From the NCBI GenBank assembly GCA_023418095.1, contig JAEZDL010000078.1:142-64141 (forward strand): a DNA stretch of 64,000 nucleotides. Reading direction: 5' to 3'. The position numbers and the translations under genes are program-made. Origin of the DNA: Bacteroidota bacterium. GTDB lineage: Bacteria > Bacteroidota > Bacteroidia > Flavobacteriales_F > PHOS-HE28. The stretch's first letter is position 1. Every line of letters begins with the position of its first letter. Below the pieces are notes generated by a model. The model was not told the DNA's origin. It did not search any database and was given only the letters and a program-made list of their open reading frames with translations. Positions 1 through 64,000 of this stretch are shown here, in pieces.

Positions 1-145
1 CTGATCGTGCCATGGAATGAAGTCAGTAGCGTTGTCGCCTCCGGTGGGCAGCAAATGTAGGGGTGGGCCGTGGTGCGGCCAAGGTATGGTCGTGAATGCT
101 TCGATCCACTTATGGTAACTTGGCTTCCCTTTCAGGACCTTAAAC

Positions 146-1456
146 ATGCGCTATACACCACTTTCCGCCAGCACATACCGCGAACATCGCGCCCGCTTCC
201 GCCAGCATATGGAAAAAGGCGGGCTTGCGATCTTCCACAGTAATGATGTGATGCCTACCAGCGCAGATGGCACCATGCCGTTCAAACAGGCAACGGATAT
301 CATGCACCTCAGTGGTATCGATCAAGAAGAAACGATCCTTCTCCTCTTCCCCGATGCTTTCGATCCGAAGGACCGTGAGATCCTTTTCGTACGCGAAACG
401 AATGAGCACATCGCGATCTGGGAAGGCGCAAAATTCACGCAAAAGGAAGCTTCGGAATTGAGCGGGATCGCCAACGTGCAGTGGACAAGCAATTTCGAAG
501 CGGTCCTGAAGCGATTGGTGCCGCAATGTGAAATGCTGTACCTCAACAGCAACGAACACCTGCGCCAGGGCAACGAAGTGCAAACGCGCGAGGATCGGAA
601 GAACGATCAGCTTCGATCGCAATTCCCACTGCATCCGTTGAAGCGCAGCGCCCCGATCATGCACCGGATCCGATCACGCAAGACCGGTGAGGAGATCGAT
701 CAGATCAAGCGCGCGATCGCCATCACCGGCAAGGCCTTCGATCGCATTTGTGGGTTCGTGAAGCCGGGCGTGAAGGAATACGAGATCGAAGCGGAGATCA
801 CCCATGAATTCATCAGAAATGGCTCGCGCGGCCATGCCTACACGCCGATCATCGCGAGCGGGTACAACGCGTGCGTGCTTCACTATATCGCGAACGATCA
901 GGTGTGCCGCGATGGCGATGTGATCCTGATGGATTTTGGTTGCGAATACGGCGGCTATGCCAGCGATCTTACGCGCAGCATTCCTGTGAACGGCCATTTC
1001 ACAAAACGCCAGCGTGATGTCTATGACGCGGTGCTCCGGGTGAAGAATGAAGCCACGCAATTGCTCAGGCCTGGCACCTTGTTGAACGATTATCACAAGG
1101 AGGTCGGGAAGATCATGGAAAGTGAACTGATCGGCCTTGGCCTTCTCGATCGCGAGGATGTGAAAAAGCAGGATCCCGATCGCCCGCTGTACAAGAAATA
1201 TTTCATGCATGGCACCAGCCATTTCCTCGGCCTGGATGTGCATGATGTGGGCCTGTGGCACGAACCGATCGCGGAGGACATGGTGTTCACCGTGGAGCCC
1301 GGCATCTATATCCGAGAAGAGAACCTCGGCATCCGGCTGGAGAACAACATACTCGTGACCAAGGATGAACCTGTGGATCTATTCGCTGCGATACCTGTTG
1401 AAGCGGAAGCGATCGAGGAGATGATGGCCGGCGCACAACGCACGGTCGCGATCTAG
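146..1456 (+). CDS. pepP: Xaa-Pro aminopeptidase (peptidase M24B)
   Basis: 436-aa ORF starting at ATG 146. M24 metal-ligand motifs DFGCEYGGYASDLTR, HGTSHFLGLDVHD, FTVEPGIY and RLENN follow an aminopeptidase-P-type N-terminal domain. Confidence 0.9.
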   Translation: MRYTPLSASTYREHRARFRQHMEKGGLAIFHSNDVMPTSADGTMPFKQATDIMHLSGIDQEETILLLFPDAFDPKDREILFVRETNEHIAIWEGAKFTQKEASELSGIANVQWTSNFEAVLKRLVPQCEMLYLNSNEHLRQGNEVQTREDRKNDQLRSQFPLHPLKRSAPIMHRIRSRKTGEEIDQIKRAIAITGKAFDRICGFVKPGVKEYEIEAEITHEFIRNGSRGHAYTPIIASGYNACVLHYIANDQVCRDGDVILMDFGCEYGGYASDLTRSIPVNGHFTKRQRDVYDAVLRVKNEATQLLRPGTLLNDYHKEVGKIMESELIGLGLLDREDVKKQDPDRPLYKKYFMHGTSHFLGLDVHDVGLWHEPIAEDMVFTVEPGIYIREENLGIRLENNILVTKDEPVDLFAAIPVEAEAIEEMMAGAQRTVAI

Positions 1457-1457
1457 A

Positions 1458-2438
1458 TCACCATTGCCATTGCGCCCAGAGCGCAAGGATCAACAGTGAT
1501 TCCACTGCTGATTCGCTCAGCCAACTGCGTTTCGTTCCTTGCAGGGAATTCGCGCAGAAGATGGTGAGCGGGACCACCAACATCGCAGCTGGCAGGTGAC
1601 CTGTGATGAGCCAGATGATCGCCAGCAGAACCGCGAGCGCTGCGGTGAACCCAAGAAAGGAAGCGCGGATGTTCTTCAGCCTGATCACTCCCCGGTTATA
1701 GCTGCGGGTGAATGAAAGCATTCCCACAGGAAGCATTCCCGCAAGCACCATGCATAGAAAGATCCGTTGCGATGCCGGCACGGATCCGATCGCCGGGTCG
1801 CCAACATGAGCGTATGCGATCGTAAGCAATGGCCTCCATTCCCCCACTCCGGTGATGAGCAGGATGCCCCATGCCAGATAGAGAACGATCGCCGATGCGA
1901 TCAGCGGAACGAGGTATTCGCGCCATTGCGGCGGGCGGAGCACTGAAATAGTCGTCCAGATCACCACCACGAGGAACAGGTAAGGCAGGTAGAACAATGC
2001 GGCGATCCCGATCAGCATTCCAGAGTCGAAAAGCGCGCCCATCGCCCGGCCCGTATTGCTCATGGACCACGACCGGTGCAATGCTGCGATCACGAAGGGC
2101 ATTCCGGTGAGCGCTGGGTCCAGCGGTGCCATGGGGCCGAAAGCCGCCAGCAGCAACGGAAAGATCATCGCGGAAAGATGGGTGCGCTTCTCCAGCAATT
2201 CTGAATCGTTCACCATCAGATCCACCTGCACAGCGATCAACAGGATGAACAGGGTGGAAAGAATACCCTGCACGATCGGCCTCCCGTTCACCAGACCGTT
2301 GAGCAATGCATGCAACGGCATGGCGAGTTCGGGTGAGGCGATCGGCCGTGTGAAGGCCGGTCCGAAAAGTAGCGGGACCAGCAGGATCAGGCCTGACAGC
2401 ACCACCGGTTGATTGCTTCTGAAGATGCCCGCCAGCAT
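1458..2438 (-). CDS. polytopic membrane protein, function unknown
   Basis: 326-aa ORF made almost entirely of hydrophobic helices (about 9). No catalytic motif recognised. It fills the gap between pepP and purD. Confidence 0.7.
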   Translation of the reverse strand: MLAGIFRSNQPVVLSGLILLVPLLFGPAFTRPIASPELAMPLHALLNGLVNGRPIVQGILSTLFILLIAVQVDLMVNDSELLEKRTHLSAMIFPLLLAAFGPMAPLDPALTGMPFVIAALHRSWSMSNTGRAMGALFDSGMLIGIAALFYLPYLFLVVVIWTTISVLRPPQWREYLVPLIASAIVLYLAWGILLITGVGEWRPLLTIAYAHVGDPAIGSVPASQRIFLCMVLAGMLPVGMLSFTRSYNRGVIRLKNIRASFLGFTAALAVLLAIIWLITGHLPAAMLVVPLTIFCANSLQGTKRSWLSESAVESLLILALWAQWQW

Positions 2439-2664
2439 GGATCAGGAAGTGCCCCTATATTTGCCCGGATCAAGCACGCACCGCATGTACCAGATCTTCT
2501 TTTCGATCGGCCGTTTCCTGGAGAGTACGTTCACCATTCTTGCTGCGCTTGGTTGGGTGCCGGTGATACTCATCTCCGTGATCCTCGCATTCGGCCTGGT
2601 GTACTGGCTGATGATGCAGGACCGGTACAACAAGGAGGCGCGGCGCAAGGGTACCCTCGCATAG
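2437..2664 (+). CDS. small membrane protein, function unknown
   Basis: Short ORF divergent from 1458..2438 with a strongly hydrophobic segment FTILAALGWVPVILISVILAFGLVYWL and a basic tail. The start is ambiguous (TTG 2413, ATG 2425 or ATG 2437). Confidence 0.45.
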   Translation: MDQEVPLYLPGSSTHRMYQIFFSIGRFLESTFTILAALGWVPVILISVILAFGLVYWLMMQDRYNKEARRKGTLA

Positions 2665-2666
2665 GA

Positions 2667-4742: not shown

Positions 4743-4797
4743 GTTCTGGATCTATGGTGGGTGTGCACAAAGTAAAGACCGTGCCAGATCCGAAAGA

Positions 4798-15155: not shown

Positions 15156-16160
15156 ATGGGATTGCCGCGAGTTTCCGTATTGATGCCTTATCACAATGCG
15201 GCTTCCACGATCGAGGCAGCGATCGAAAGCATGATACGCCAGAGCTTCGCCGATCTGGAGTTGATCCTGATCGACAATGCTTCCACCGATGAAAGCCGGG
15301 CGATCATGAAGGAATGGATTAGAAGAGATCATCGCCTCCGATCCGTGGAAGAACCGCGGATCGGGATCGCATTCGCATTGAACACTGGGTTGCTTCATGC
15401 CAAAGGAGATCTGATCGCGCGCATGGATGCCGATGATATTTCCCTTCCCGACCGGATCGAAAAGCAGGTCGCCTTCATGGATCGGAACCCGGACATCGGC
15501 GTGTTGGGCACTCGCACGCAATTCCGATCTACGGTGAATAAGAACAGCGGAATGCAATGGTTCGTTCAATGGCAGAACAAGATCCTTTCAACCGGGGATC
15601 ATTTCATCAAGCGCTTCATCGATGTGCCGCTCGCGCATCCCACCGTGATGTTCCGCAAAAGTTTGATCGCGGAATTCGGAGGTTATTCCACCGATCCACT
15701 TCCTGAAGATCATGAGTTGTGGCTGCGCTGGATGGATGCAGGTGTGCGCTTCGCGAAGCTGCCGGAGGAACTGTTGATCTGGAACGATCACGCTGATAGG
15801 CTCAGCCGGAACCATCCGAACTACAGCGTTCACAGTTTCTACCGGACGAAGGTGAAATGGCTGGCGAAATGGCTGGATCAGATCCTGAATGGAAGAGATC
15901 TGATCATCGCTGGAACGAGCACGATGTGCAGGGAACGCGCGGCATTGCTGGAGAATGAAGGGATCCGCATCCATGCGTTCACCGATGTACGGTTTCGTGA
16001 AGTACCGTGCTATCGCTTCATCGAGCACGATCAACTTCCCCCGAAGGGGGAAGCGTTCATCGTTTCCTTCATTTCGCAACGCGGCACAGGCGATCGGATC
16101 GCAGCTTATTTCAATTCGATCGGCCTGTTCGAAGGCGAGGACTTCATCCTCGCGGCCTGA
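15156..16160 (+). CDS. glycosyltransferase family 2 protein
   Basis: N-terminal GT-A motifs are VSVLMPYHNAASTIEAAIESMIRQSF, IDNASTDES and ARMDADD. There is an extra C-terminal domain of about 90 aa. Confidence 0.85.
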   Translation: MGLPRVSVLMPYHNAASTIEAAIESMIRQSFADLELILIDNASTDESRAIMKEWIRRDHRLRSVEEPRIGIAFALNTGLLHAKGDLIARMDADDISLPDRIEKQVAFMDRNPDIGVLGTRTQFRSTVNKNSGMQWFVQWQNKILSTGDHFIKRFIDVPLAHPTVMFRKSLIAEFGGYSTDPLPEDHELWLRWMDAGVRFAKLPEELLIWNDHADRLSRNHPNYSVHSFYRTKVKWLAKWLDQILNGRDLIIAGTSTMCRERAALLENEGIRIHAFTDVRFREVPCYRFIEHDQLPPKGEAFIVSFISQRGTGDRIAAYFNSIGLFEGEDFILAA

Positions 16161-16397
16161 TCACTCCTCGACCACGCGCTCACCGCGCTTCGGCCGGAGT
16201 TTATCGCGAACGGTCACAAGATGTTTCTCGTCGCATTCCAGGATCGCGATGGATCGCAACTGCTGCTCGCGTACCCAATGCTTGTAATCGCGTATGCCTT
16301 CCCTATCGCAGAACGCATCGATCTTCTCAAGGAAATGTTCAGCGGTGTGCTTCGCATCCGGCCCGAAAAAATCCCAATGAAAACGCAACAACGACAT
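16161..16397 (-). CDS. small conserved-looking hypothetical protein
   Basis: 78/79-aa ORF that exactly fills the gap between the GT2 stop and gpsA. Its start overlaps the gpsA stop (GTGATG at 16395..16400). The composition is balanced and non-shadow-like. Confidence 0.5.
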   Translation of the reverse strand: MSLLRFHWDFFGPDAKHTAEHFLEKIDAFCDREGIRDYKHWVREQQLRSIAILECDEKHLVTVRDKLRPKRGERVVEE

Positions 16398-17389
16398 CAC
16401 GCCAGTTTATCGCTCAACAACCGCATCTCCATCGCTGGTGCCATGCGTTCGTAGAGCATGCGGTACGTTGCTTCACTGATCGGCATGTCGACCTTCAGTT
16501 CCTTGTTGATCTCGTGCACACACTTCACCGCGTAATATCCTTCAGCAACCATGTTCATTTCCAGTTGCGCTGCGCGAACGCTGTATCCTTTTCCGATCAT
16601 GTTGCCGAATTCCCGGTTGCGGCTGAAGGTGGAATAAGCCGTTACCAGCAGATCGCCGAGATACGCCGGTTCATTTATGTCGCGATCGATGGGATGCACC
16701 GCTTCAACGAACCGATCGATCTCCTGGATCGCGCGGCTTACGAGCACCGCACGAAAGTTATCGCCGTAACCAAGACCAACGCTTATCCCTGCCGCGACCG
16801 CGATCACGTTCTTCAGGATCGCTGCGTATTCAGTGCCGTAGATGTCATCGCTCAAGGTGGTCTTCATGAAGCGGCCGTTGAGCGCCCTGCCCATGAACGC
16901 CGCCGATCGCTGATCCTGGCTCGCGATCGTGAGATAGCTCAAGCGTTCCATGGCGACCTCCTCCGCATGGCATGGCCCGCAGATCACCCCGAAATCCTCC
17001 GGCTCCACGCCACAATGCTGGAAAAGGAATTCTCCCACGATCTGGTTGGTCTCTGGAATGATCCCCTTCACCGCACTGAAGATCTTCTTTCCGGCAAGCT
17101 CCGATGGATCGAGAAGATCGATGGTCGCCTTGAGAAACGCGCTGGGAACAGCGATCACGAGAACATCACTCTCGCGCACCACGCGATGGATGTCATCATC
17201 GATCGCCAAACGATCCACATCGAATTGCGCAGCACTGATGTAATCGGGATTGTGGCCATATTTCCTGATGTGCTCGATCGTTTCCTTCCTGCGGATCCAC
17301 CAACCGACACGATCGGAATTGCTGGAAAGCAATTTCACCAAGGCAGTTCCCCAGCTGCCGCCGCCGATCACCGCGATCCTGTTGTTCAT
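16397..17389 (-). CDS. gpsA: NAD(P)H-dependent glycerol-3-phosphate dehydrogenase
   Basis: Has the IAVIGGGSWGTALVKLL dinucleotide fold and a GpsA-type C-terminal domain. The start overlaps the upstream stop (ATGA, 17386..17389). Confidence 0.93.
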   Translation of the reverse strand: MNNRIAVIGGGSWGTALVKLLSSNSDRVGWWIRRKETIEHIRKYGHNPDYISAAQFDVDRLAIDDDIHRVVRESDVLVIAVPSAFLKATIDLLDPSELAGKKIFSAVKGIIPETNQIVGEFLFQHCGVEPEDFGVICGPCHAEEVAMERLSYLTIASQDQRSAAFMGRALNGRFMKTTLSDDIYGTEYAAILKNVIAVAAGISVGLGYGDNFRAVLVSRAIQEIDRFVEAVHPIDRDINEPAYLGDLLVTAYSTFSRNREFGNMIGKGYSVRAAQLEMNMVAEGYYAVKCVHEINKELKVDMPISEATYRMLYERMAPAMEMRLLSDKLA

Positions 17390-19053
17390 TGGAAAGTGAT
17401 CTGCTTCTCGATCCGCTCCTCACCTCGCATTACGACGATCGTTGTCGTACTGCCTTTCTCGAACATGCTCAGCGCTTTCATGTAGGTCATCATATCGCTC
17501 ACCTCGATATCTCCAAGCCGGATCACGACATCACCTGCTTTTAGCCCTGCCACGGCGGCCGGTTTTCCATCGGAAACACCATCGATCCGCATTCCCTTGC
17601 CATCGAACATGTAATCGGGTACCACGCCAAGCGTCACCTTGAAGCGCGGTACGGCCTCAGCGTTCTCCTCCTGCGTTTTTGTGAACGGAAGCTTTCCGCG
17701 ACCGTCCAGCGCATCCATCAAACCAAGGATGTGCGCCCTCACACGCAACATGCCATCGTAGTTGATCTTCTCCTCGGTATCGCTCGGCTTATGATAATCA
17801 GGATGGGTTCCGGTGAAGTAATGGATCGCGGGCACCTCCTTCAGGTAGAAGCTGGTGTGATCGCTGGGACCGATCCCACTTGTGTTCTTCTTCACGTTCA
17901 GATCGCCCGCGGTGATGCTGTCGATCACACTCCACGCCGGCGAAGTGCCGACCCCGTTGATACCGAGATTGTGAGTACTGTCCAATCGGCCGACCATGTC
18001 CATGTTGATCATGTAGTTCAACTTCTCGATCGGGATCGTGGGATCTTTTGTCCAGTGGTTCGATCCAAAAAGACCTTTCTCCTCTCCGCTGAAGGCGATG
18101 AAGAGATGATCGTTGGCTTTCACCGATGAAGCTTGAAGATCGCGAGCCAGCTGCAGCATCACCGCAACACCGCTCGCGTTGTCATCTGCACCATGATGGA
18201 TCGCCTTTTCGCCGCGGTGCAACGAGCCATCATCGCCCCAGCCGAGGTGATCGAAATGCGCACCGATAACGATCACGTTCTCACCAGGCCCATCGATCAT
18301 TGCGGCCACATTGTACGCGGTACGCTGTTCGCGGAGGATATCCACGTTCAACACACATGGATTTCCGTCCGCAAGAAGTTCCTGATGAAGTTCGCCCATC
18401 AGAAAGATGACCGGGATCGAAAGCGGAACTCCTTGGGCTGAAAGCCGATCGGATGGTGCTGGCGCTGCCGGATCGTCGTTGTAGAAGAGCACGGCTGATG
18501 CACCCACGGCCGCAGCTTTTTCTGCGCGTGAACGAAGATCATGATGTGCGAGGAACTTGCTGTGCGGATGAATGCCATCCGGCGAACTGATCGAGATCGC
18601 CGCGATCTTTCCTTTCAGATCCACATCCTTCAGATCATCGTGTTGCAGATCCGGAGCCTGGATGCCGTAACCAATCCGCTGGATCTTGCCACGCGCCAAC
18701 CCACTGCCGGATGAAGAGATCGGATGGAATTCCTCGCCGAGCTTCAGCTTCTTCCGTCCGAGCTGCAATTCGGTCGCGGGGCGCACGATCGGCTGCGCGT
18801 TGAACGTGAACGGTTGCCGATAACTTCCGTCCGTGCCTGCGGGTTTCGCCCCCAATGTCCGGAACGCTGCAGCGATGTGATCGGCGGCGAGCTTTTCTCC
18901 TTCAGTGCCGGCCTCACGACCCTCCAATTCCGCGCTGGCGAGATAGCGCACATCGGCCTGCATCCTTTGCAGCGCAAGCGTATCAGGTTCTTGTGCGCAG
19001 AGAGCGATCGGTAATAAAAGGCCCAGGATCGGAGCAGAACTGTTCGCATTCAT
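17386..19053 (-). CDS. M28 family metallopeptidase with PA-like insert and C-terminal PDZ domain
   Basis: Signal peptide. M28 motifs are IGAHFDHLGWGDDG, HHGADDNASGVA and FSGEEKGLFGSNHW. The C-terminal PDZ contains VAGLKAGDVVIRLGD. Confidence 0.85.
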   Translation of the reverse strand: MNANSSAPILGLLLPIALCAQEPDTLALQRMQADVRYLASAELEGREAGTEGEKLAADHIAAAFRTLGAKPAGTDGSYRQPFTFNAQPIVRPATELQLGRKKLKLGEEFHPISSSGSGLARGKIQRIGYGIQAPDLQHDDLKDVDLKGKIAAISISSPDGIHPHSKFLAHHDLRSRAEKAAAVGASAVLFYNDDPAAPAPSDRLSAQGVPLSIPVIFLMGELHQELLADGNPCVLNVDILREQRTAYNVAAMIDGPGENVIVIGAHFDHLGWGDDGSLHRGEKAIHHGADDNASGVAVMLQLARDLQASSVKANDHLFIAFSGEEKGLFGSNHWTKDPTIPIEKLNYMINMDMVGRLDSTHNLGINGVGTSPAWSVIDSITAGDLNVKKNTSGIGPSDHTSFYLKEVPAIHYFTGTHPDYHKPSDTEEKINYDGMLRVRAHILGLMDALDGRGKLPFTKTQEENAEAVPRFKVTLGVVPDYMFDGKGMRIDGVSDGKPAAVAGLKAGDVVIRLGDIEVSDMMTYMKALSMFEKGSTTTIVVMRGEERIEKQITFQ

Positions 19054-19346: not shown

Positions 19347-20909
19347 TCACTGCTCGAATTTCTCCGGCCGCATCTGCGGGAAGAGAAGAACTTCCTGTAT
19401 CGCGGGATTATCCGTGAGCAGCATCACCAGCCGATCCATCCCGATACCGATCCCCGATGTGGGCGGCATGCCGTATTCCAAGGCGCGCAGGAAATCCTGA
19501 TCGATGAACATCGCTTCATCGTCGCCACGTTCCTGCAGCTTCAGTTGTTCCTCAAAACGTTCGCGTTGATCGATCGGATCGTTCAATTCACTGTACGCGT
19601 TCGCGACTTCGAAACCAGCGATGAAAAGCTCGAACCTTTCTGTAAGCCTTTGATCTTCCCGATGCTTCTTGCAGAGCGGGCTCATTTCGGTGGGAAAATC
19701 GATCACGAAGGTCGGCTGGATCAATTCAGGCTGCACCAGTTCACTGAACAGCTCATCGATCAGCTTGCCTTTTCCCATCGCAGCTGTGATCGGGATCTGG
19801 TGCTTCAGGCAAAGCTCACCCAACGCGCGTTCATCCATTTCCATCACATCAACTCCGGTCTTCTCCTTGATGGCACCGATCATGCTGATCCGCTTGAACG
19901 GCGCCTTGAAGCTGATCTCGTGTCCCTGGAATTTCGAGATCGGCGATCCGTTCGCGGCGGTGGCAACTGAAGTGAATACGCCTTCGATGAAATCCATCAT
20001 CCACTTGTAATCCTTGTACGCCACGTACAATTCCATTACCGTGAATTCAGGATTGTGCGTGCGATCCATGCCTTCGTTGCGGAAGTTCCTGCTGAACTCG
20101 AACACGCCATCGAATCCACCGACGATCAACCTTTTCAGGTAAAGCTCGTTCGCGATCCGCAGGTAATACGGAACATCCAGCGCATTATGATGCGTGATGA
20201 ATGGCCGCGCTGCAGCGCCACCCGGGATCGCCTGTAGCACGGGCGTATCCACCTCGATGTAACCGGCCTTCTGGAATTCTTGTCGCATCGCGTCGAAGAC
20301 TCGCGTACGTTTCAGGAAGGTCTCCTTCACCTGCGGATTCACGATCAGGTCCACATAACGCATGCGGTAGCGCAATTCCGGATCTGTGAACGCATCATGC
20401 ACATTGCCTTCTTCGTCGGTCTTCACCACCGGCAATGGCCGCAGTGATTTGGATAAGACAGTGAGCTTCTTCACATGAAGCGTGATCTCACCCATGCGCG
20501 TCTTGAACACGAATCCTTCCACGCCGATATGGTCACCGAGATGGAGCAGGTGTTTCCACACCTGATCGTACATCGTCTTGTCCTCGCCCGGAGCGATCTC
20601 ATCCCGCGCGATGTAGATCTGTATGTCGCCGGTATGATCGCGCAACACCGCGAAACTCGCCTTGCCCATCAGGCGGATGCTCATGATCCGGCCGGCGATC
20701 GATACGATCGGCGTGGGTGCTTTTTCCGTTTCGGGCGAGTCGGAAAGCCCCTCGGGATGTGGCGGAGGATCGGTCCAGGCCTCCTTGATGTCCTTCGCGC
20801 TGGAGGTCACCTTGTATCCTTCAGCCGGAAAAGGCTCGATCCCCAGATCGCGTAATTTCTGCAATGCCTCGCGGCGAATTATTTCCTGATCGGAAAGATG
20901 GGTGGACAT
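19347..20909 (-). CDS. lysS: lysine--tRNA ligase (class II)
   Basis: 520 aa with an OB-fold anticodon-binding region followed by class II motifs, including FEFSRNFRNEGMDRTHNPEFT and GIGIGMDRLVMLL. Confidence 0.95.
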   Translation of the reverse strand: MSTHLSDQEIIRREALQKLRDLGIEPFPAEGYKVTSSAKDIKEAWTDPPPHPEGLSDSPETEKAPTPIVSIAGRIMSIRLMGKASFAVLRDHTGDIQIYIARDEIAPGEDKTMYDQVWKHLLHLGDHIGVEGFVFKTRMGEITLHVKKLTVLSKSLRPLPVVKTDEEGNVHDAFTDPELRYRMRYVDLIVNPQVKETFLKRTRVFDAMRQEFQKAGYIEVDTPVLQAIPGGAAARPFITHHNALDVPYYLRIANELYLKRLIVGGFDGVFEFSRNFRNEGMDRTHNPEFTVMELYVAYKDYKWMMDFIEGVFTSVATAANGSPISKFQGHEISFKAPFKRISMIGAIKEKTGVDVMEMDERALGELCLKHQIPITAAMGKGKLIDELFSELVQPELIQPTFVIDFPTEMSPLCKKHREDQRLTERFELFIAGFEVANAYSELNDPIDQRERFEEQLKLQERGDDEAMFIDQDFLRALEYGMPPTSGIGIGMDRLVMLLTDNPAIQEVLLFPQMRPEKFEQ

Positions 20910-22002: not shown

Positions 22003-22107
22003 AGCAAGGACCGCAAAGGCGCAAAGACCGCAAAGGGACGATGAGCGAAAGGTGAACTAAAGCAAGGAACCGCAAAGGCGCGCAGGGCGCAAAGGGACGA
22101 TGAGCGA
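22003..22107 (+). repeat. tandem duplication (about 58-nt period) of a CGCAAAG-rich unit carrying the GxxExxY start region
   Basis: Copy 1 (22003..22048): agcaaggaccgcaaaggcgcaaagaccgcaaagggacgatgagcga. Copy 2 (22061..22107): agcaaggaaccgcaaaggcgcgcagggcgcaaagggacgatgagcga. Copy 2 supplies the real ATG (22100). Copy 1 gives ATG AGC GAA AGG TGA. Confidence 0.85.
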
Positions 22108-22486
22108 GAATGAGCTATCGCATCTCATTATTGGCCGCGCAATTGAAGTCCATCGCGAACTCGGACCTGGGCTGCTTGAAAGCATTTACCAGCATTGCCT
22201 CGCGTTTGAATTGATCGAAGCAGGATTGAATATCAGGGTACAACATCCTCTGCCTGTCAATTACAAGGGTCAACCGATGGATCTAGGATTTCGCTTGGAT
22301 ATCTGGGTTGATCATAAGGTCGTTGTTGAGGTGAAGGCGGTCGACGCTTTGCATGATGTTCATCTCGCGCAAGTGCTTACATACCTGAAATTGGTGAACA
22401 AAAAACTTGGCCTGCTGATCAACTTCAACGTACCCCGTCTCAGGGATGGTGTGAAAAGGATCGTTCTCGGTCTGCCGGAAGCGTAA
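22100..22486 (+). CDS. GxxExxY protein (PD-(D/E)XK-like)
   Basis: 128 aa with the family signature GPGLLESIYQHCL and downstream D...E.K-type residues (DIWVDHKVVVEVK). Confidence 0.9.
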   Translation: MSENELSHLIIGRAIEVHRELGPGLLESIYQHCLAFELIEAGLNIRVQHPLPVNYKGQPMDLGFRLDIWVDHKVVVEVKAVDALHDVHLAQVLTYLKLVNKKLGLLINFNVPRLRDGVKRIVLGLPEA

Positions 22487-38458: not shown

Positions 38459-39178
38459 TTACAGGCCGTATTTCATGATACACCAGATCGCACGGAAACC
38501 GTCCTTCCAGCCGATCTTTTTTCCTTCAGCATAGGTGCGACCATAATAGCTGATGCCGACCTCATAGATCCGGATGCCTGGTATTTTGGCAAGCTTGGCG
38601 GTCACCTCCGGCTCAAATCCAAACCTCTTTTCCCGTAGATCCAGGCTTTTTGCGATATCGCTTCGGATCAACTTGTAACATGTTTCCATGTCCGTGAGGT
38701 TGAGGTTATTGAACGCATTGGACAATTGTGTAAGCACCTTATTGCCGATGCTGTGCCAGAAAAATAGGATCCGATGCGGATGATGGCCCATGAAGCGAGA
38801 ACCGTAGACGACATCTGCAAAACCTTCTACAACGGGCTTCAGTAAGAGATTGTACTCACGCGGATCGTATTCCAGGTCGGCGTCCTGCACGATCAGGTGT
38901 TCACCGATCGCTTCTTTGATCCCGCGATGGATCGCCGCTCCTTTGCCCATGTTGCGCGGTTGCTCAAAGAACCTGATCGGGAAGTCGGGGTGCCGATCGA
39001 TGTAGGCGCGGATCGCGGCGGCCGTGCCATCCTTTGAACCATCATCAACGATCACAACGTCCTTTTGGATGCCATGATCAAGGATCACGTTGCGCACGCG
39101 ATCGAGGATCAGGTGGATCGTGCGCTCCTCATTGTACGCGGGAATGATGATGGAGAGCATACGCGGCCTATGTTCCAT
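38459..39178 (-). CDS. GT2 polyprenyl-phosphate sugar synthase-like glycosyltransferase (Dpm1/GtrB/ArnC type), copy b
   Basis: 239 aa. Motifs are [46 protein letters not shown] and [10 protein letters not shown]...RFGFEPE. It aligns along its whole length with 30680..31417. Confidence 0.8.
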
Positions 39179-39211
39179 CCGATCGGAAATGTTGGAAAAT
39201 GCGAACCTCCT

Positions 39212-39871
39212 TCATTCAGAGATCTCCCCTATCTCACCCTCGACCACAAGCCGGCCTTCGGTCTTCGCCTTGATCTCTTCCACCGAAACTCCTGGCGCAC
39301 GCTCCAAAAGTTTGAAACCGTCGGGTGTCACATCGAATACACCTAGATCGGTCACGATCTTCTTCACACATTGCACACCCGTCAGCGGTAGTGTGCATTT
39401 CTTCAGCAACTTGCTTTCGCCTGCCTTGTTGGTGTGCATCATCACCACTATGATGTTGTCCGCGCTGCTCACCAGATCCATGGCGCCACCCATTCCCTTC
39501 ACCATTTTGCCCGGAATCTTCCAATTGGCGATATCGCCGTTGTCCGCCACTTCCATGGCGCCGAGCACGGTAAGTTGCACGTGTTGGCCGCGGATCATGG
39601 CGAAACTGGTGGCGCTGTCGAAAATGCTGCTGCCGGGCAAAAGCGTCACGGTCTGTTTTCCCGCGTTGATCAGATCCGCATCTTCTTCACCTTCGATCGG
39701 GAACGGCCCCATGCCGAGAATGCCGTTCTCGCTTTGGAGCACCACGTTGATGTTCTGTGGAATGTAATTGGCCACCAGCGTGGGAATGCCGATCCCCAGG
39801 TTCACATAATAACCATCGCGCAATTCCCGCGCGATACGCCTCGCCATCTGTTCCTTGTTCAGCCCCATCAC
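39212..39871 (-). CDS. scoB: 3-oxoacid CoA-transferase subunit B
   Basis: 219 aa with the catalytic-Glu context [16 protein letters not shown], typical of the CoA-transferase family I beta subunit. Confidence 0.92.
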
Positions 39872-41686: not shown

Positions 41687-41693
41687 GATCGGA

Positions 41694-42392
41694 TCACATC
41701 CTTGGCCTTACCGTGCGCTGCTCGATCCGCTTTTCGTAGTTCGTGCCTTGATAGATCCGCTGCACGAAAATGCCTGGCGTGTGGATCTCATCCGGATCCA
41801 ACGCGCCCGGCTCCACGAGTTCCTCCACTTCGGCCACGGTGACCCTTCCGGCCATGGCCATCATGGGATTGAAATTCCGCGCGGTGCGCTTATACACCAG
41901 GTTGCCGGACCGATCACCTTTCCAGGCCTTCACCAGGGCGAAATCGGCCCGCAGCCATTCCTCCATCACATACATCTTTCCATTGAACTCGCGCGTCTCC
42001 TTCCCCTCGGCCACTTCGGTACCGTAACCCGCCGGAGTGAAGAACGCCGGAATGCCCGCTCCACCTGCACGACACCTTTCGGCCAGGGTTCCCTGCGGAA
42101 TGAGCTCGACCTCGAGTTCGCCGCTCAACATCTGGCGCTCGAATTCGGCGTTCTCACCCACGTAACTACTGATCATCTTCCTGATCTGCCGCGTGCCGAG
42201 CAGGAGCCCGAGCCCGAAATCATCCACGCCGGCATTGTTGCTAATGCAGGTAAGTCCCTTCACCCCTTTCCTCACCAGGGCATTGATGCTGTTCTCGGGG
42301 ATCCCGCAAAGGCCGAAGCCGCCAACCATCAACGTCATCCCGTCCGATAGACCATCAAGCGCCTCCTGCGCATTTGAAACGACCTTGTTCAT
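41694..42392 (-). CDS. scoA: 3-oxoacid CoA-transferase subunit A
   Basis: 232 aa with [16 protein letters not shown] and the rest typical of the CoA-transferase family I alpha subunit. Confidence 0.92.
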
Positions 42393-42825
42393 TCTTCTAG
42401 ATCATCGTAGCGGACGAAGATAGTCGCCCCGATCGGAGCGTGATCGGGTCGTTCGAGGGAAGCACACTTCCCGCATCTGCGGCACACGGTCCACGATCCG
42501 CCGATCGGCATAACTACGACGGATCGCAGAAAATCCACGTCAGACAAGCCTTTCCGGGAAACGGCACGCGGTTGCATGGCAAGGGTACAAAACCGACAGC
42601 CATGAAACCTGTACTACGATATGGCCCAGCTGGCAGGTTCAATAAACAGAACGATGACAGCCACAACGGCAAAAGGCCCTGCGTGAATGAAAGTGAGGAA
42701 CGCGACGCACGTGTCCGCGAAGGCGTAGGTCTCCGCAGCAAGATCGATGTGATACCTGCGATGTTCGGCAATTACGGCAACGGTCCGTTCATCATGCCAT
42801 CGTTGCACTTTCCAGCATAAGAGGA

Positions 42826-52712: not shown

Positions 52713-52874
52713 TCATGTGCTGGCGCTTCCGCGGATCAGCGATAGAACGAAGAGCACAAGGAATATGAAGAATAGCACTTTGGCGATCCCTGCGGCTCCT
52801 GCGGCAACACCACCGAAGCCGAGCACGGCGGCTATGATCGCGATAACAAGAAAGGTCAATGTCCAGCGTAGCAT
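52713..52874 (-). CDS. DUF1328/YtjA-like tiny membrane protein
   Basis: Start trimmed to [53 protein letters not shown] (53 aa, cat at 52872..52874), which matches the family pattern. Confidence 0.75.
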
Positions 52875-53114
52875 GATATGAATGATTTGATCACACCGGT
52901 CCTGGATCATAAACCCGTGCCAGAGCGTGCCTGATAGCGGAAAACCGAACTCCATTCACAAAGCTGATCGGGGCGTGTTGGGTTTGAGCAACCCGATCCG
53001 TGGGGTGCATCGGCCACAGAATGCTGGAACATCGGCAGGCTGTTCCCTCTTTCTGCGGCCCGATCCTTCTGCACATCAAAGATCCCGGCCAGATCCGGCA
53101 TGGATCTGTAGGGT

Positions 53115-53528
53115 GTGGATCACGTGAGAACGATCATCACGATATTGATCCTGGCGGTTTCCGCTTCTTTGCATGGACAGGATGTCCCGGCAGGAGCATC
53201 GCCCACCGATCGCTCCCCGGTGCAAACACCCGTGGAAGAAGCACGGGCACTTTCAGGAACGTTGAAGGACCTGTTGGGCCAGGTGCATAAGCAACTCGGC
53301 CGGATCGACCAGGAATTGAAGATCTCGACCACTGAAAAACAGAATTCGATCCTCGCCGATCAACTGGAGGATATGATGGAAGCCCGGGCGGATCTTGAAC
53401 AAGCTTTGGACTTGGTGAACAGTACACGACCACAGGATATGAAGAACATCCGATCGGAAGTGGATGATGTGATCCGATCGGTGAAGGAGGAACTTGAAGA
53501 GATCGGATCGACTTCCGCCGTGAACTAA
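53115..53528 (+). CDS. secreted coiled-coil protein, function unknown
   Basis: GTG start (53115 or 53124), signal peptide RTIITILILAVSASLHGQ, then a helical E/L/K/D-rich sequence. Confidence 0.5.
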   Translation: MDHVRTIITILILAVSASLHGQDVPAGASPTDRSPVQTPVEEARALSGTLKDLLGQVHKQLGRIDQELKISTTEKQNSILADQLEDMMEARADLEQALDLVNSTRPQDMKNIRSEVDDVIRSVKEELEEIGSTSAVN

Positions 53529-54461: not shown

Positions 54462-57400
54462 TCAGGGTCGGTCAAATGTACCGAAATAGGCGTTCACGCG
54501 ATCGCGGTAATAAGGCTTCAATCCCGGGGGCACTGTTCGCAACAATTCCGCCTCGCGCGCCTTGCGCCGGTGATGTTCGAAGAACCGGGCCGGATCGGGT
54601 GCTGGCTGATCCCGGCCTTCATTGCTGGTGCGTTTCTGATCGAGTTCGCGTTCACGTTCGGCCTTCTCATGTTCGAGCAGGCGTGTCATTATATCCTGCT
54701 GGCGTCTCATGGTCTGCTGATCGATCTTCTTGTTCACGATATCCTTCTCCTGCTTTTCCATCTCCTCGGCGAGCTTCTGAAGGCCGTTCCCTGATCCGCT
54801 TCCATCCTTGTTCAATTCCTGCGCGAGCCGCTGCATCTCCTTGCGGATCGCAGCCTGCTGGGCCGCCATCTGCGCCATCTGCTGGCTCATGCCCGGCATA
54901 CCAAGTCCACCTGGATTCTTCTCTCCCGGCTTTTCTCCAGGTTTCTTTCCTTTCTCCATCGCCTTCCGCATTTCCTCCAACTGCTTCTGAAGTGCCTCCT
55001 GCTGCGCCTTCATCTTGGCCATGCTCGGCTTGTTCCCCTGGCCCTGGCCGCTACCGGGTTTGCTGCAACTGCCACTGCCCGGTTTACCCTGTTGCATCAT
55101 CTGTTGCATCATCTGCTGCAGCGCTTCATCAAGCAACAAGGCGAGGTTGTTCAGTGAAGTCATCGCATGTTGTTGCTTATCGGCGGCCATCGGTTTGAAA
55201 CGTTCGTTCGCGCGCGCTTCGCCGAGATGTTCCACCGCCTCGTCCATGTTGGAATTCACCGCGTTCATTTCGCGGTTCACGATGCCCTCCAACTGCGGAA
55301 CGCGCTTGCTGAGCGCGAAAAGCGAATCCTCGATCACCTTTGCATCATCGCGAAGTTTCCGTTGCTCCCGGCCATGTTCCATGAAGCGCGGATCGCGGAT
55401 GTTGGTTGTGGTCATCTCCTCCATCACCTGCTCCTGATCGAAGCTCAGGTGCACGATGTTCTCCAACAATTGACGAAGCGCATCCATGTCCTCCTCCTGC
55501 TGTTCCTGCGCATTGTCCGCCATGGCGCTCTCCATCTGGAAGGCCATCTGTTCCATTTTCTCCGCAGCGTTCTTCTGTGACCCGCTCGCTTTCTGGTTCT
55601 GTTTCTTCTGAAGTTGATCGCTGCTCTGCTGCTGATCCTTCTGGATCTCCTGTTCCTGCTGATCGGTATCCGGCAGATCCATGGGCTGCTCCAGTTCGGC
55701 GTTCTTCTCCTGAAGCTTGTCCATTTCCTCTCGAACCTGTTCGAATTCCTTGTTCAATTCATCCTGCTTTTTCTGGAGTTCCTCCTGATCGGCCTTCCCT
55801 TCCTTCGTTTCCTCAGCGAGCTCATCCTGCTTTTCGGCAAGGTCCTTCAGTTGTTCGGCCAGATCGGTAGCTTTCTGTTCCACCTCCATCTGCTTGAAAA
55901 GCTCCAGCGTGCGATCGAGTTCCTTCTCAATGTCCTCCTGGCTCAACTGCATATCCTTCAATTGCTCCTGCAGTTGCTCCTTATCCAGCGCCTCCATCAT
56001 CTCCTGCACCTTGCGGTACAGTTCCTTCATCTCCTCGGTGAGCACGTTCTCGAAAAGCTCCTGGATCTGTTGTTGCTTTTCAAGCAACTGCTCGTCCATC
56101 TGGCGGAATTCCTGCTGTTGCTGCTGGCTTTCGCGCAGCTGCTGCGTGTTCTGTTCGATCCGCTGTTGAAGCTCCTTCTGCCGGTCGAGCACATTCTGCA
56201 TCTTCTGCTTGTCCTGCCAGCCAAGCTCCTTCTTGTCCAGCATTTCGCGGCGCAACTTCTCCAATTCCCGCTGGATGTCCTGTGCCTCCCTGATGCTTTC
56301 GGTCAATTCGCTCTTGATCGTTCCACTGCTCTGCTCCTGTTGCTCGGATAATTCCTTCAGTGTTGGTGCGGCGAATACCTGCACAGCGCTCCGTGCGCTC
56401 TTGCTTCCGTTCACACCATCATTGTCCCACACCTCGAACCAATGTTCCACCCGATCGCCCGGGTTGATGGTGAGATCGTACAATTCCCAACTATGGAAGA
56501 ATTCCTGGCGGGCCGCTTTCCTGTCGATCGGAAGTTCCATGGAGCCACTGCGCCGATCGGCGGCTACACTATCGCCACCTGTAACGAACCTGTAATGGAA
56601 AACCAATCTTTTGAAACCGTGGTCGTCACCGATCTCACCGCGGTAGAAGAGACGCTTGATCGCTGTACTGTCCGTGCGCGTTTCCACCTGGATCGTGGGG
56701 TGCAGATCGGGGATCACTTCAACCCGGTAGCTGAGCGGATCGGGCGCGATGCGATCACCATTGCCCGGGCTCATGCGGTACGTATGGCTGCGGAGGAAAC
56801 GCCGCTCCATATTGAAGCGATCGCTACGGCCGGTGGCATCCACGGAATGGATCACATGCGTGGTATCGTCAAAGATGAACTCGAGCCGATCCGCGCTTCG
56901 TGCGTTCACGTTCCACTTCACCTCAGTGCCTGCCGGGATATTCAGATCGCCCATGTTGTGCACGGTCTCACTGGCGATGCCCAGATAATCCGGATAATCG
57001 AGCTCCATGCTGAAATCAAGCAGCAGTGGATCGGGGATCGTGCGCAGGGTGTGCATCCCGGAATTGAACCCCTCAGCGGTGAAGCGGAAATCCACCGGTT
57101 CACGCACATTGCGGAATCGATGCTGGAATCGCGTGGCATCCTTCTTCACCAGTGGGATCCGCTGGCCATTTATATCAAGCTCCACCAATTGCGGGATCGC
57201 CGATCCCTCCAACTCGACGACGAGTTCGAAATCCTGCTCCTCCGGGACCACCAGTTCATCATTCAACACCACGAAACGGAAAGGTGCTTCCGGGATGAAT
57301 TCACTGCCATGTGCGATGATGCGCTTCGTAGGGCCGGTGATCAGGCTCGGTGCAGCGAACAACAGGATGACCAGCACTGCGAGCGGTGGTAATGCGTAAC

Positions 57401-57875
57401 GCAAGTAGCGCGTGTTCCGGCGCAGGTCGATCGCGCTTGAGAAGGGCACCGGCACCAGTTCCCGGCTTCGCTGTTCGATCGCAGCATCGATCAATGCGCG
57501 CTGCTGCGGCGAAACATCGCTCATTTCACGCAGCTGCAATGTGTTCAGGAGCTTGTCCTTCACTTCACTGAAGTGCGTGCCGATGATGCGCGCCGCTTCC
57601 TTGTGGCCGATCACTTCACCCAGGCGGAACAACTTAACCAGCGGGATGGCGATGAAACGAACAAGAATGAAAAGCGCCGACGCGATCGTTCCCCAGAACA
57701 TGGCCGTACGCGCAGCGGTGCCGAAGCGGCCAAGGTGTTCCAGCAACGCCACAGCGAGAAAGACCAGCACCAACAGGCCCAGACTGTAAAGCGCGCCGCG
57801 GATCAGCTGGTCCTGGTAGTACCGGCGGATGAACACATCAAGCTTGGCGATCAGGTGATCGAGTTCTGTAGGCAT
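54462..57875 (-). CDS. giant membrane-anchored coiled-coil protein (DUF4175-like)
   Basis: Start trimmed to MPTELDHLIAKLDVFIRRYYQDQ. Two N-terminal TM helices are followed by a beta-rich region of about 450 aa. Then comes an E/Q/K/M-rich predicted coiled coil of about 400 aa and a conserved-looking C-terminal end VPPGLKPYYRDRVNAYF. Confidence 0.8.
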   Translation of the reverse strand: MPTELDHLIAKLDVFIRRYYQDQLIRGALYSLGLLVLVFLAVALLEHLGRFGTAARTAMFWGTIASALFILVRFIAIPLVKLFRLGEVIGHKEAARIIGTHFSEVKDKLLNTLQLREMSDVSPQQRALIDAAIEQRSRELVPVPFSSAIDLRRNTRYLRYALPPLAVLVILLFAAPSLITGPTKRIIAHGSEFIPEAPFRFVVLNDELVVPEEQDFELVVELEGSAIPQLVELDINGQRIPLVKKDATRFQHRFRNVREPVDFRFTAEGFNSGMHTLRTIPDPLLLDFSMELDYPDYLGIASETVHNMGDLNIPAGTEVKWNVNARSADRLEFIFDDTTHVIHSVDATGRSDRFNMERRFLRSHTYRMSPGNGDRIAPDPLSYRVEVIPDLHPTIQVETRTDSTAIKRLFYRGEIGDDHGFKRLVFHYRFVTGGDSVAADRRSGSMELPIDRKAARQEFFHSWELYDLTINPGDRVEHWFEVWDNDGVNGSKSARSAVQVFAAPTLKELSEQQEQSSGTIKSELTESIREAQDIQRELEKLRREMLDKKELGWQDKQKMQNVLDRQKELQQRIEQNTQQLRESQQQQQEFRQMDEQLLEKQQQIQELFENVLTEEMKELYRKVQEMMEALDKEQLQEQLKDMQLSQEDIEKELDRTLELFKQMEVEQKATDLAEQLKDLAEKQDELAEETKEGKADQEELQKKQDELNKEFEQVREEMDKLQEKNAELEQPMDLPDTDQQEQEIQKDQQQSSDQLQKKQNQKASGSQKNAAEKMEQMAFQMESAMADNAQEQQEEDMDALRQLLENIVHLSFDQEQVMEEMTTTNIRDPRFMEHGREQRKLRDDAKVIEDSLFALSKRVPQLEGIVNREMNAVNSNMDEAVEHLGEARANERFKPMAADKQQHAMTSLNNLALLLDEALQQMMQQMMQQGKPGSGSCSKPGSGQGQGNKPSMAKMKAQQEALQKQLEEMRKAMEKGKKPGEKPGEKNPGGLGMPGMSQQMAQMAAQQAAIRKEMQRLAQELNKDGSGSGNGLQKLAEEMEKQEKDIVNKKIDQQTMRRQQDIMTRLLEHEKAERERELDQKRTSNEGRDQPAPDPARFFEHHRRKAREAELLRTVPPGLKPYYRDRVNAYFGTFDRP

Positions 57876-58028
57876 CTTCGTGGTCCCTTCTTCAACGCTT
57901 CTGCGCCAAGGGCTATTGCACCCCGAAGGTACGGCACAACGGCAGTAGCGTACACGGCAGTACACGCTGCGGTGGTGGGAGGTTCAGCAACGGCTTATTG
58001 GATGATCGGTCACCGGCCCGTTCAAGAC

Positions 58029-60848: not shown

Positions 60849-60855
60849 GGTTCGA

Positions 60856-62616: not shown

Positions 62617-62758
62617 GGAACTTTTTCCTGGCTTCCCCCAGAGGGCTGAAAAGGTTGACCGGCAGTGACCTGGATCGATATTGAACGGATACACGGATCG
62701 TGGATGAAGCGTTGAATATAGCGCCCACCGCCGGATACAGGGAAACGCTATTAATCGG

Positions 62759-62766
62759 TACCTTTG
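62759..62766 (+). promoter_or_regulatory. candidate Bacteroidota -7 promoter box (TAnnTTTG), would give a near-leaderless mRNA
   Basis: TACCTTTG ends 7 nt upstream of ATG 62774. Confidence 0.3.
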
Positions 62767-62773
62767 CAGCCGC

Positions 62774-63103
62774 ATGGCCAAGAAGACTACCTCACCCAAG
62801 ACCTACGATATCGACGTTCTGCAACTTACGGATGAGGAGGAGGCTCGCCAGCTGGTTCTGCGTGTCGGCGAGCACCGCGTCCGCATGGAATACGATCGCA
62901 GCGGTGATCGTATCTTCCTCACGAACCTCGATGTGCCGCGCACCTGTTGCATCGAGAACATGCATGTGCGCATGATCGAAAAGGTGTTCAACTGGGTTGA
63001 GGCGAACAACCTGAAGATCATTCCCACCAACCAGGTCGTGAAGGCCTACCTGCGCGAGAACAAAGGCTGGCAGCGGCTCTTATTGAAGGGCGTGCAGGTC
63101 TGA
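62774..63103 (+). CDS. small GNAT-like (YjdJ-type) acetyltransferase-fold protein
   Basis: 109 aa. The layout (..[26 protein letters not shown]......[24 protein letters not shown]) resembles the single-domain N-acetyltransferase-like family. Assigned from memory only. Confidence 0.6.
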
Positions 63104-63236
63104 TCTATTCCGCTTCGGTGTAGTTGAACGTCCGCGACCAATAGGTCGCTTGGCGTATGCGGTCCCATTAACTTCGCAACCCCTCAGCGATCCGCACGAT
63201 CGTCTGATCATCCCATTATCCGATCATCTGATCAAA

Positions 63237-64000
63237 ATGTCGGTTCGCGTTCGTTTTGCACCCAGCCCCACCGGTCCCCTGCACATGGGCGGCGTGCGCA
63301 CTGCTTTGTACAATTATCTCTTCGCCCGCAAACACGGCGGCCAGTTCCTGCTTCGGATCGAGGATACGGACCAGAACCGATTTGTTCCCGGTGCGGAGGA
63401 TTACATCCGTGAAGCGCTGGATTGGTGCGGGCTCACGCCGGATGAAAGTCCTTGGATCGGCGGCCCCGATGGACCTTACCGCCAGAGCGAGCGCAAGGAG
63501 ATGTACCGGCAGTACGCCGAGCGGTTGATCGCCGAGGACAAGGCGTATTACGCGTTCGATACGCCGGAAGAATTGGAGGCGATGCGCGAACGCTTGAAGG
63601 CCGCTGGTGTGGCCGCGCCCGCCTACAACGCGGTCACGCGCGAGCACATGAAGAACAGTCTCACCTTGAGCGCCGATCAGGTGAAGGAGAAGCTCGATCG
63701 CGCGGAGGACTATGTGATCCGCCTGAAAGTGCCGCGGCACCAGGAAGTGCGTTTCGAGGATGCGATCCGTGGGTGGGTAGTGGTGCACAGCGCCAACATC
63801 GATGACAAGGTGCTCTTCAAGAGCGATGGCATGCCCACGTACCACCTGGCGAACATCGTGGATGATCACCTGATGCGCATCACGCACGTGATCCGTGGTG
63901 AAGAGTGGCTTCCGAGCGCTCCGCTGCATGTGTTGCTTTATGAAGCTTTCGGCTGGGAGCGGCCCGTGTTCGCTCATCTTCCATTGATCCTGAAACCCGA
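63237..64000 (+). CDS. gltX: glutamate--tRNA ligase, 5' partial (runs off the window)
   Basis: Open frame from ATG 63237, not in the ORF track because it has no stop. My translation is [48 protein letters not shown]...[25 protein letters not shown], with the class I HIGH-type motif PLHMGG. The listed minus-strand ORF 63216..63977 is its antisense shadow. Confidence 0.93.

Follow-up and report, generated by a model that had tools for sequence, protein, structure and literature searches.

Why should a bacterial genome carry one short palindrome far more often than its base composition predicts, and carry it within genes and between them alike? The question is raised by a 64,000-bp stretch of DNA from a Bacteroidota bacterium (contig JAEZDL010000078.1, assembly GCA_023418095.1), hereafter the window, in which the tetramer GATC occurs 1346 times, i.e., 21.0 sites per kb or one per 47.6 bp. 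GATC is the top over-represented tetramer of the window, and the bases inside a GATC make up 8.4% of it. The reading favored here, with a probability of roughly 0.4, is that of a lineage-wide motif drive whose cause would be very-short-patch (VSP)-like repair, converting T:G to C:G at the cytosine of the site.

Abundance of GATC in coding and intergenic DNA

The window has a G+C content of 54.8%. The observed/expected ratio (O/E) of GATC is 5.49 under a zero-order model (base composition), 2.46 under a first-order Markov model, and 1.42 under the maximum-order Markov model. Note that the last value is over-conservative because the signal itself deflates the GATC ratio; 65% of the GAT trimers and 29% of the AT dinucleotides in the window lie inside a GATC. 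Dinucleotide-preserving shuffles (n=100) gave 549±16 GATC, with 582 as the largest count, and 1346 was reached by none. The strong over-representation reported in a preliminary description of this DNA is therefore confirmed, and the local counts given there for positions 1-780 and 42393-42540 (Table 2), as well as the octamers noted at 713 and 31694, are exact. The restriction-site avoidance test finds no under-representation of GATC, its O/E being the 5.49 given above.

The sites are spread evenly along the window (26-59 per 2-kb bin). Their spacing is near-geometric, and the sole periodicity is the codon period of 3. Even density and near-geometric spacing rule out a periodic or clustered placement. 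The longest GATC-free stretches encode protein segments that are of low complexity or poor in Asp and Ile. The longest of all, 54846-55332, lacks GATC because few Asp and Ile residues leave few coding opportunities for it. This segment (with QQMMQQMMQQ and KPGEKPGEK) lies within a DUF4175-like gene of 1167 aa (54462-57965) and is responsible for the marked AT skew of the bin at 54-56 kb.

The enriched motif is the bare tetramer. C precedes GATC in about 40% of the sites and G follows it in 39% (a 1.4-fold preference), and no flank bias is found beyond ±1 of the window sites. The preliminary description had pointed to GCGATCGC, the highly iterated palindrome (HIP1) of cyanobacteria. This octamer is not enriched beyond its CGATCG core: 9 copies are found, starting at 12254, 25505, 31694, 32681, 47986, 54377, 54498, and 56817 in addition to the one in Table 2, against 14.9 expected from the 198 CGATCG and the flank base frequencies. 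HIP1, or any longer motif, as the enriched unit was rejected on this count and on the absence of bias beyond ±1. The HIP1 copies in the window are incidental.

The excess does not come from the genes. GATC density is 20.8/kb in the 47 genes and 21.7/kb in strictly intergenic DNA (79 GATC in 3643 bp). When codons were permuted synonymously within each gene, so that both protein and codon usage were kept, 721±16 GATC were obtained against 1214 observed in genes (z=30), and each of the three codon phases exceeds the expectation from these synonymous shuffles (370/301, 111/35, and 733/384 observed/expected). The claim that the excess goes beyond codon usage, in all three phases and in coding and non-coding DNA alike, thus stands. 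Codon usage and amino-acid composition as the cause are ruled out by the synonymous and whole-codon shuffles together with the intergenic density. The GATC excess is a property of the DNA and not a product of gene content. Of the 1740 codon pairs that could form GATC synonymously, 1214 (70%) do so. Occupancy is 83% where Asp is followed by a codon starting with C, 71% where any codon is followed by Ile, and 43% in the third phase, for which rare xGA codons are required. Occupancy in the lysyl-tRNA synthetase (LysRS) gene is 83% (Table 2), against a median of 15% in the orthologues of other Bacteroidota (comparison across 85 genomes).

A trivial origin has a negligible probability, be it the usage of codons, the amino-acid content of the proteins, some repeated element, or an artefact of assembly or sequencing. 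Ile is indeed encoded by ATC in 80% and Asp by GAT in 75% of cases, both being favored codons. Shuffles that keep this usage nevertheless fall far short of the observed count; intergenic density is equal, spacing is near-geometric, flanks are not conserved, and the bias recurs in independent assemblies from NCBI, ENA, and JGI.

Related genomes and the footprint at the cytosine

The comparators were regions of about 20 kb around the LysRS gene from 80 species representatives and six closer metagenomic relatives. The relatives at 75-97% LysRS identity are all metagenome-assembled genomes (MAGs), labelled 'Flavobacteriales bacterium' where named. At 97% identity (L081/L082), GATC reaches 22.7-23.8/kb with an O/E of about 6. 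At 87% (L083, L167) it is 16-16.5/kb with an O/E of about 4.2, and at 88% (L084) 11.6/kb with an O/E of 3.1. At 74-79% (L001-L004, L166) 7-12/kb and O/E 2.1-3.2 are found. Below 68% identity, the 76 other Bacteroidota (L005-L080) have a median O/E of about 0.9 (range 0.06-2.4). The excess is thus graded, its density declining with phylogenetic distance within one clade of 'Flavobacteriales' MAGs from uncultured bacteria. Clade genomes with known ratios include GCA_026129465.1 (JAHCIA010000001.1, 3.86 Mb, GATC O/E about 2), GCA_023430945.1 (97% LysRS relative, O/E about 6), and the JGI 3300042995 contig Ga0451525_00011 (569 kb, O/E 4.2); CAVPLQ01 (MFD09964.bin.1.3) is another member. The Microflora Danica and Danish wastewater MAGs of the clade appear to stem from long-read sequencing. 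Enriched loci were drawn from independent assemblies at NCBI, ENA, and JGI, some of them in neighborhoods without synteny (L084), which makes the bias a trait of the lineage's genomes rather than of one window or assembly. Enrichment beyond this window, as the preliminary description expected, is accordingly found. Among comparators of similar G+C, depletion of GATT/AATC is confined to the clade: its O/E is 0.16-0.67 in all clade members and 1.3-1.5 in the others.

Three side observations concern other loci and contigs. Near-complete avoidance of GATC (O/E 0-0.26) is found in L014, L058, L006, L042, L089, L094, and L151, for example in Riemerella anatipestifer (L014, O/E 0.06) and Parabacteroides (L058, 0.09); L089 has no GATC in 19 kb. 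This avoidance is consistent with GATC-specific restriction systems. In a group of metagenome contigs that carry GxxExxY (L124, L128, L144, L147, and L133) and are probably cyanobacterial, the O/E of GATC is 1.7-3.6 and that of HIP1 10-21, without GATT depletion. The HIP1-type and the clade-type excess thus differ in footprint, GATT depletion being found in the latter only. L005 (CAYRZQ010000040.1), labelled 'uncultured Comamonadaceae bacterium', has a LysRS 67% identical to that of the window and ranks among the Bacteroidota matches; this contig is probably mis-binned.

The single-base neighbors of GATC are not lost to the same extent. Note that GATT and AATC represent one and the same change in the duplex, that is, C/T at the cytosine of GATC. 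When the next codon is ATC, a 4-fold degenerate site holds A in 0.3%, C in 15.6%, G in 80.7%, and T in 3.4% of cases; when it is another codon starting with A, the shares are A 20.7%, C 36.2%, G 34.9%, and T 8.2%. Before ATC, A drops about 60-fold (Fisher odds ratio (OR) 0.038, p=3e-15) and C and T about 2.4-fold. Ile after G is encoded by ATC 733, by ATA 54, and by ATT 7 times, and after C by ATC 252, by ATA 36, and by ATT 96 times (OR of the ATT loss 0.049, p=3e-16). Before ATC, 98.6% of the Lys, Glu, and Gln codons end in G, against a baseline of 61%. Leu after GAT is encoded by CTN 105 times and by TTR never, while TTR accounts for 27% elsewhere. Taken over synonymous sites, the outer-position transition neighbors (GATT/AATC) are depleted 40-140-fold in the window and 15-140-fold across the clade, while the transversion neighbors drop about 2-5-fold (Fisher p 1e-14 to 1e-16 for the contrast).

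The inner positions behave differently. The choice between GAT and GAC is the same before C as before G (OR 1.15, not significant). At position 2 (GGN or CGN codons before TCN), GATC is favored with an odds ratio of 6.4, the three alternatives dropping about equally; the corresponding values are 2.2 in distant clade members and 1.05 and 0.65 in outgroups, which also have no preference for G before ATC. In the moderately enriched clade members (7-12 GATC/kb), A before ATC is at 1.6% and ATT after G at 1.4%, while the transversion neighbors remain at 0.8-0.9 of baseline. Divergence tells the same story as composition. A comparison of the window with a relative of 89% identity counts, among single differences at GATC sites, 1 transition and 24 transversions at the outer positions and 19 transitions and 13 transversions at the inner ones; in the background, transitions make up 56%.

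No flank context is exempt from the depletion of GATT, and the recognized core is therefore GATY and not CGATCG. A GANTC restriction site behind the loss of AATC and GATT was considered and rejected because A precedes ATC in only 2 of 595 cases when eight 4-fold families are pooled, most of which cannot form GAATC, and because GATT is lost in all flanks. Gains and losses polarized against L083 numbered 11 and 24, respectively, a ratio that was left unused since this outgroup is itself GATC-rich. The footprint matches that of VSP-type repair: the T variant is depleted, the C variant is enriched, and the effect is position-specific. Several genome-wide drivers had been proposed in the preliminary description, and the signature predicted for one of them, very-short-patch-type repair, is the loss of the T variant at the cytosine position that is found here.

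The pressure toward GATC extends to dipeptide usage (Table 1). Amino-acid pairs that can encode GATC are over-represented in the window and those that can encode only a depleted neighbor are under-represented, with relatives intermediate in most cases. For two controls, Glu-[Leu/Pro/His/Gln/Arg] and Asn-[Phe/Tyr/Cys/Trp], the values are close to those of the outgroups.

Table 1. O/E of amino-acid pairs in the window, its clade, and outgroups
Pair	Tetramer concerned	Window	Closest relatives	Distant clade	Outgroups
Asp-[Leu/Pro/His/Gln/Arg]	GAT-C, i.e., GATC	1.50	1.46	1.22	about 1.0
[Arg/Gly]-Ser	can encode xGA-TC	1.53	1.46	1.18	about 0.9
Asp-[Phe/Tyr/Cys/Trp]	only neighbor GATT	0.58	0.77	0.89	1.3
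Asn-[Leu/Pro/His/Gln/Arg]	only neighbor AATC	0.56	0.70	0.72	1.05
[Lys/Gln/Glu]-Ser	only neighbor AATC	0.54	0.46	0.62	0.88

Repair, selection, and other candidate causes

We infer repair as the cause from the footprint above, and with it the involvement of cytosine methylation and the identity of the acting enzymes. The excess has two components. The dominant and clade-wide one is specific to C/T at the cytosine position and adds roughly 7-20-fold to the general effect; it would convert GATT/AATC directionally to GATC, resolving C/T almost always to C. Such conversion would require a sequence-specific T:G mismatch endonuclease or glycosylase that acts in the GATY context, probably in partnership with a cytosine methyltransferase acting on GATC. 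Such an enzyme would restore deaminated GATC sites. It would also 'correct' to GATC the T:G mismatches that arise by replication at GATT, out-competing general mismatch repair: a G misincorporated opposite the T of GATT would be fixed as a T-to-C change, and the balance of GATC to GATT could plausibly move ten- to a hundredfold in this way. The weaker component favors GATC over every neighbor, from about 2-fold in the distant clade to about 6-fold in this species, and may reflect either selection that favors dense sites or a repair bias of broader scope. The two components together would account for the filling of about 70% of synonymous opportunities and for the shift in dipeptide usage. Taken further, and more tentatively than the repair itself, the excess may reflect a self-reinforcing 'motif drive', in which a GATC-specific module of modification and mismatch repair writes GATC into about 8% of the clade genomes and alters the proteome.

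Several points weigh against repair as the cause. The second component is needed because C/T-specific repair cannot give the 2-6-fold preference at inner positions and over transversions. Intergenic GATT is depleted about 10-fold relative to GATC (small numbers), which is below the level at synonymous sites. Candidate enzymes were not encountered in the small part of the roughly 4 Mb genome that the searches covered (window and fetched loci): Pfam and NCBIfam find no DNA methyltransferase, Vsr, MutH, or restriction enzyme encoded in the 64-kb window, Pfam no D12-class methyltransferase among its proteins, and the family-annotated clade loci have no cytosine methyltransferase, Dam, Vsr, or MutH-like gene. 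Likewise, tblastn with the E. coli Dam and Vsr proteins (query sequences entered by hand) gave no match in any fetched locus. Moreover, the effect of VSP repair on k-mer abundance in E. coli is modest, against the 15-140-fold seen here.

Selection for dense functional GATC, for example as targets of an orphan Dam-type adenine methyltransferase, joined to a separate selection against GATT/AATC decoys, is a serious alternative, although a somewhat less probable one than repair. The sites could serve strand marking, replication control, chromosome organization, self-recognition, or DNA exchange, and orphan GATC adenine methyltransferases do occur in some Bacteroidota. The most enriched genomes prefer GATC over its neighbors at all four positions (odds about 6), amino-acid pairs are shifted toward GATC-encoding ones, between species 190 GATC are shared and 81 unshared where generic tetramer identity is 63%, and cyanobacterial HIP1 has been argued to be selected (PMC5861425). 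What weighs against selection is the shape of the depletion. A single benefit of GATC at mutation-selection equilibrium would deplete all alternatives by an equal factor, whereas the factors differ 10-25-fold between the outer-position transition neighbor and the rest, and in distant clade members this neighbor alone is depleted. GATT is also not avoided where an escape exists, Asp before T-starting codons being GAT in 79% of cases. Furthermore, the value per site would be tiny across about 80,000 sites, one per 47 bp; E. coli has roughly one GATC per 250 bp and uses it for methyl-directed mismatch repair.

Two further explanations invoke mutation or its repair. The methyl-directed mismatch-repair 'ratchet', proposed by Elhai for HIP1, would let sites accumulate as a by-product: an error creates a methylatable site on the nascent strand, the site is methylated, mismatch repair is misdirected, and the error is kept. 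Mismatch repair is most efficient on transition mismatches, so misdirected repair would hit transitions more, which would match 15-140-fold against 2-6-fold, and the model already exists for a palindrome with the same core (PMC4390886). It should, however, favor site-creating transitions at all four positions, which is not observed: the OR for GACC to GATC is 1.15, GGTC is not preferentially lost, and inner transitions are common between species (19 against 1 outer). The saturation near one site per kb that the model predicts is likewise absent. In addition, Bacteroidota, as far as we know, are without MutH and use MutL-endonuclease repair. The ratchet is accordingly improbable. Even less probable is protection alone, in which N4-methylation or another state slows the deamination of the GATC cytosine while GATT-to-GATC changes proceed at the normal rate. 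Like the observed pattern, protection would concern C/T changes at the cytosine only; but lowering one mutation class gives a shift of a few-fold in GATC:GATT and not 40-140-fold, and no general preference for GATC at the other positions is predicted. VSP-like repair at the cytosine, by comparison, predicts the position- and transition-specific loss itself.

Gene content, known systems, and implications

The window was annotated from its open reading frame (ORF) listing and from Pfam and NCBIfam searches of its proteins. It encodes housekeeping and envelope functions (aminopeptidase P, PurD, a carboxyltransferase, LysRS, GpsA, LpxD, SodA, and CoA-transferase subunits), two-component and sigma-54 regulators, glycosyltransferases, and surface proteins sorted by the type IX secretion system (T9SS). 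The T9SS sorting domains and the relatives of LysRS support the assignment to Bacteroidota. No tRNA genes or Rfam matches are found in the window. The ORF 42440-42820, in the gap between the CoA-transferase and NUDIX genes, has no family match.

Table 2. Coordinates of GATC-related and other features in the window
Feature	Position	Strand	Remarks
GATC-saturated DNA	1..64000	.	1346 sites, even spread
GATC-rich example stretch	1..780	.	20 GATC, mostly in aminopeptidase P gene (146-1456 +)
HIP1 copy, GCGATCGC	713..720	.	one of 9 in the window
Lysyl-tRNA synthetase gene	19347..20909	-	35 GATC at 42 permitted positions (83%)
Small GxxExxY/PDDEXK_3 nuclease-family gene (TIGR04256)	22100-22486	+	between PGI-like and LplA-like genes
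Divergent intergenic region, CoA-transferase/NUDIX genes	42393..42825	.	7 GATC in 433 bp, 6 of them in 42393-42540
Intergenic region	52713..53136	.	13 GATC in 424 bp
Longest GATC-free gap, 486 bp	54846..55332	-	Q/A/G/M/K-rich low-complexity segment, almost without Asp or Ile

The GxxExxY/PDDEXK_3 nuclease was considered as the driver of GATC and rejected. Among the first 85 loci it is found in the clade only, yet it is uncorrelated with GATC elsewhere: 80 metagenome contigs that carry the family have GATC O/E from 0 to 3.6 (median near 1.5), and two of them (L086, L088) are probable clade contigs. The surroundings of LysRS hold one or two copies of the gene in clade relatives, namely in L081 (1062-1445, minus strand), L083 (8464-8838 and 17366-17728), L002 (1298-1678), and L166 (8484-8867 and 11561-11959). 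In L081/L082, the relative at 97%, the copy is interrupted by a stop in frame (W to *) and is probably a pseudogene.

Long antisense open frames are another feature of the window. The preliminary description took them for a side effect of GATC, an explanation that does not hold. Non-coding frames contain 43 runs of 150 or more codons without a stop, and 28 of these runs share one antisense frame. Since shuffles with 40% fewer GATC (721) give as many (39.7±4.4), these frames are not due to GATC; they stem from general codon usage, in which TTA, CTA, and TCA are rare. Three such ORFs of 225-492 aa (16007-17485, 39090-39767, and 41610-42350, all on the plus strand) have no family match and lie opposite the family-confirmed genes gpsA and two CoA-transferase subunits. 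They could mislead gene callers.

Other k-mers deviate as well. Depleted ones include GACTC/GAGTC (O/E 0.09), GACT/AGTC (0.17), GTCGAC (0.16), GGGCCC (0.15), CTAG (0.07), TTAA (0.11), the trimers GAC/GTC (0.46), and GACGTC, which has 0 copies. Apart from those of CTAG and TTAA, these depletions may be traces of restriction systems that act now or acted earlier, for example of GAGTC or GANTC type and of AatII type. GAATTC (47 copies, O/E 3.75) and CAATTG (2.79) are over-represented, and AATT has the highest maximum-order Markov ratio (1.98). Asp is encoded by GAT in 75-84% of cases before C, G, or T (82% before G) although G+C at third codon positions is 65%; most other two-fold codon pairs lean to C, His being an exception. 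This preference for GAT beyond the GATC context possibly reflects avoidance of GACG/GACT or a co-adaptation of decoding to GATC pressure.

The closest known phenomena are the HIP1 variants of cyanobacteria and the VSP-repair skew of enterobacteria. Like HIP1, the motif described here is a hyper-abundant short palindrome with a GATC core that is genome-wide and lineage-specific, found in coding and non-coding DNA, and overrides codon preferences, and HIP1 has raised the same question of selection versus a methylation-linked repair ratchet (PMC4390886, PMC5861425). It nevertheless differs from HIP1: the octamer is not enriched beyond its core, the repeated unit is GATC alone, and the phylum is Bacteroidota. 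Palindromes of the HIP1 type are expected together with orphan GATC and CGATCG methyltransferases, and the window encodes no methyltransferase. Its density is about 21/kb against the 0.3-2.7 HIP1 per kb reported for cyanobacteria, and while deviations from HIP1 cluster at the outermost bases of the octamer, here one transition neighbor, GATT/AATC, is near-absent.

The phenomenon is most VSP-like, on GATC and far stronger. In the Dcm/Vsr system of E. coli, as presented in PMC5337935, the T variant is likewise depleted and the C variant enriched through T:G-to-C:G repair, and the same text cites Bhagwat & McClelland (1992) for the view that VSP repair with Dcm has altered oligonucleotide abundance in E. 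coli. The site here is, however, GATC and not CCWGG, the effect is 15-140-fold at synonymous sites with 5.5-fold enrichment overall, there is an extra general pull to GATC, and no vsr/dcm-type gene is present in the window or the annotated clade loci. In systems of this type a vsr-like or Mig-like gene is usually the neighbor of an m5C methyltransferase gene. The Dam/MutH/SeqA system of Gammaproteobacteria shares the tetramer, and methylation there gives GATC genome-wide functions, but nothing in that system predicts the loss of GATT/AATC, and no dam, mutH, or seqA gene is found in the window or the annotated clade loci. E. coli has about 4 GATC per kb, which is close to random expectation. 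Methyl-directed repair is, to our knowledge, not known from Bacteroidota. Avoidance of GATC under DpnII/MboI- and DpnI-type systems is also palindrome-specific and caused by DNA modification (PMC4687349), and the sign here is opposite. No prior report of GATC hyper-abundance in Bacteroidota was found in the open-access full-text literature.

The hyper-abundance of HIP1 has been without an agreed cause for three decades, and the same kind of phenomenon is now found in a second phylum. It takes a simpler form there, a tetramer, at higher density and with relatives graded from about 2-fold to about 6-fold. The mutational footprint separates a cytosine-specific repair bias from uniform selection, and the question of drive versus selection is directly testable with existing MAGs and long-read data. 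Motif pressure at the DNA level can reshape dipeptide composition, which matters for codon and substitution models. Genomes of the clade will be extreme outliers in tetranucleotide-based binning, and the excess also matters for the interpretation of methylomes: methylation at these sites, if present, would affect about 9% of the adenines or about 8% of the cytosines. If motif drive is true, no stronger site-specific repair bias would be known to have shaped the genome and proteome of a bacterium, and the HIP1 puzzle would have its tetramer counterpart in a second phylum.

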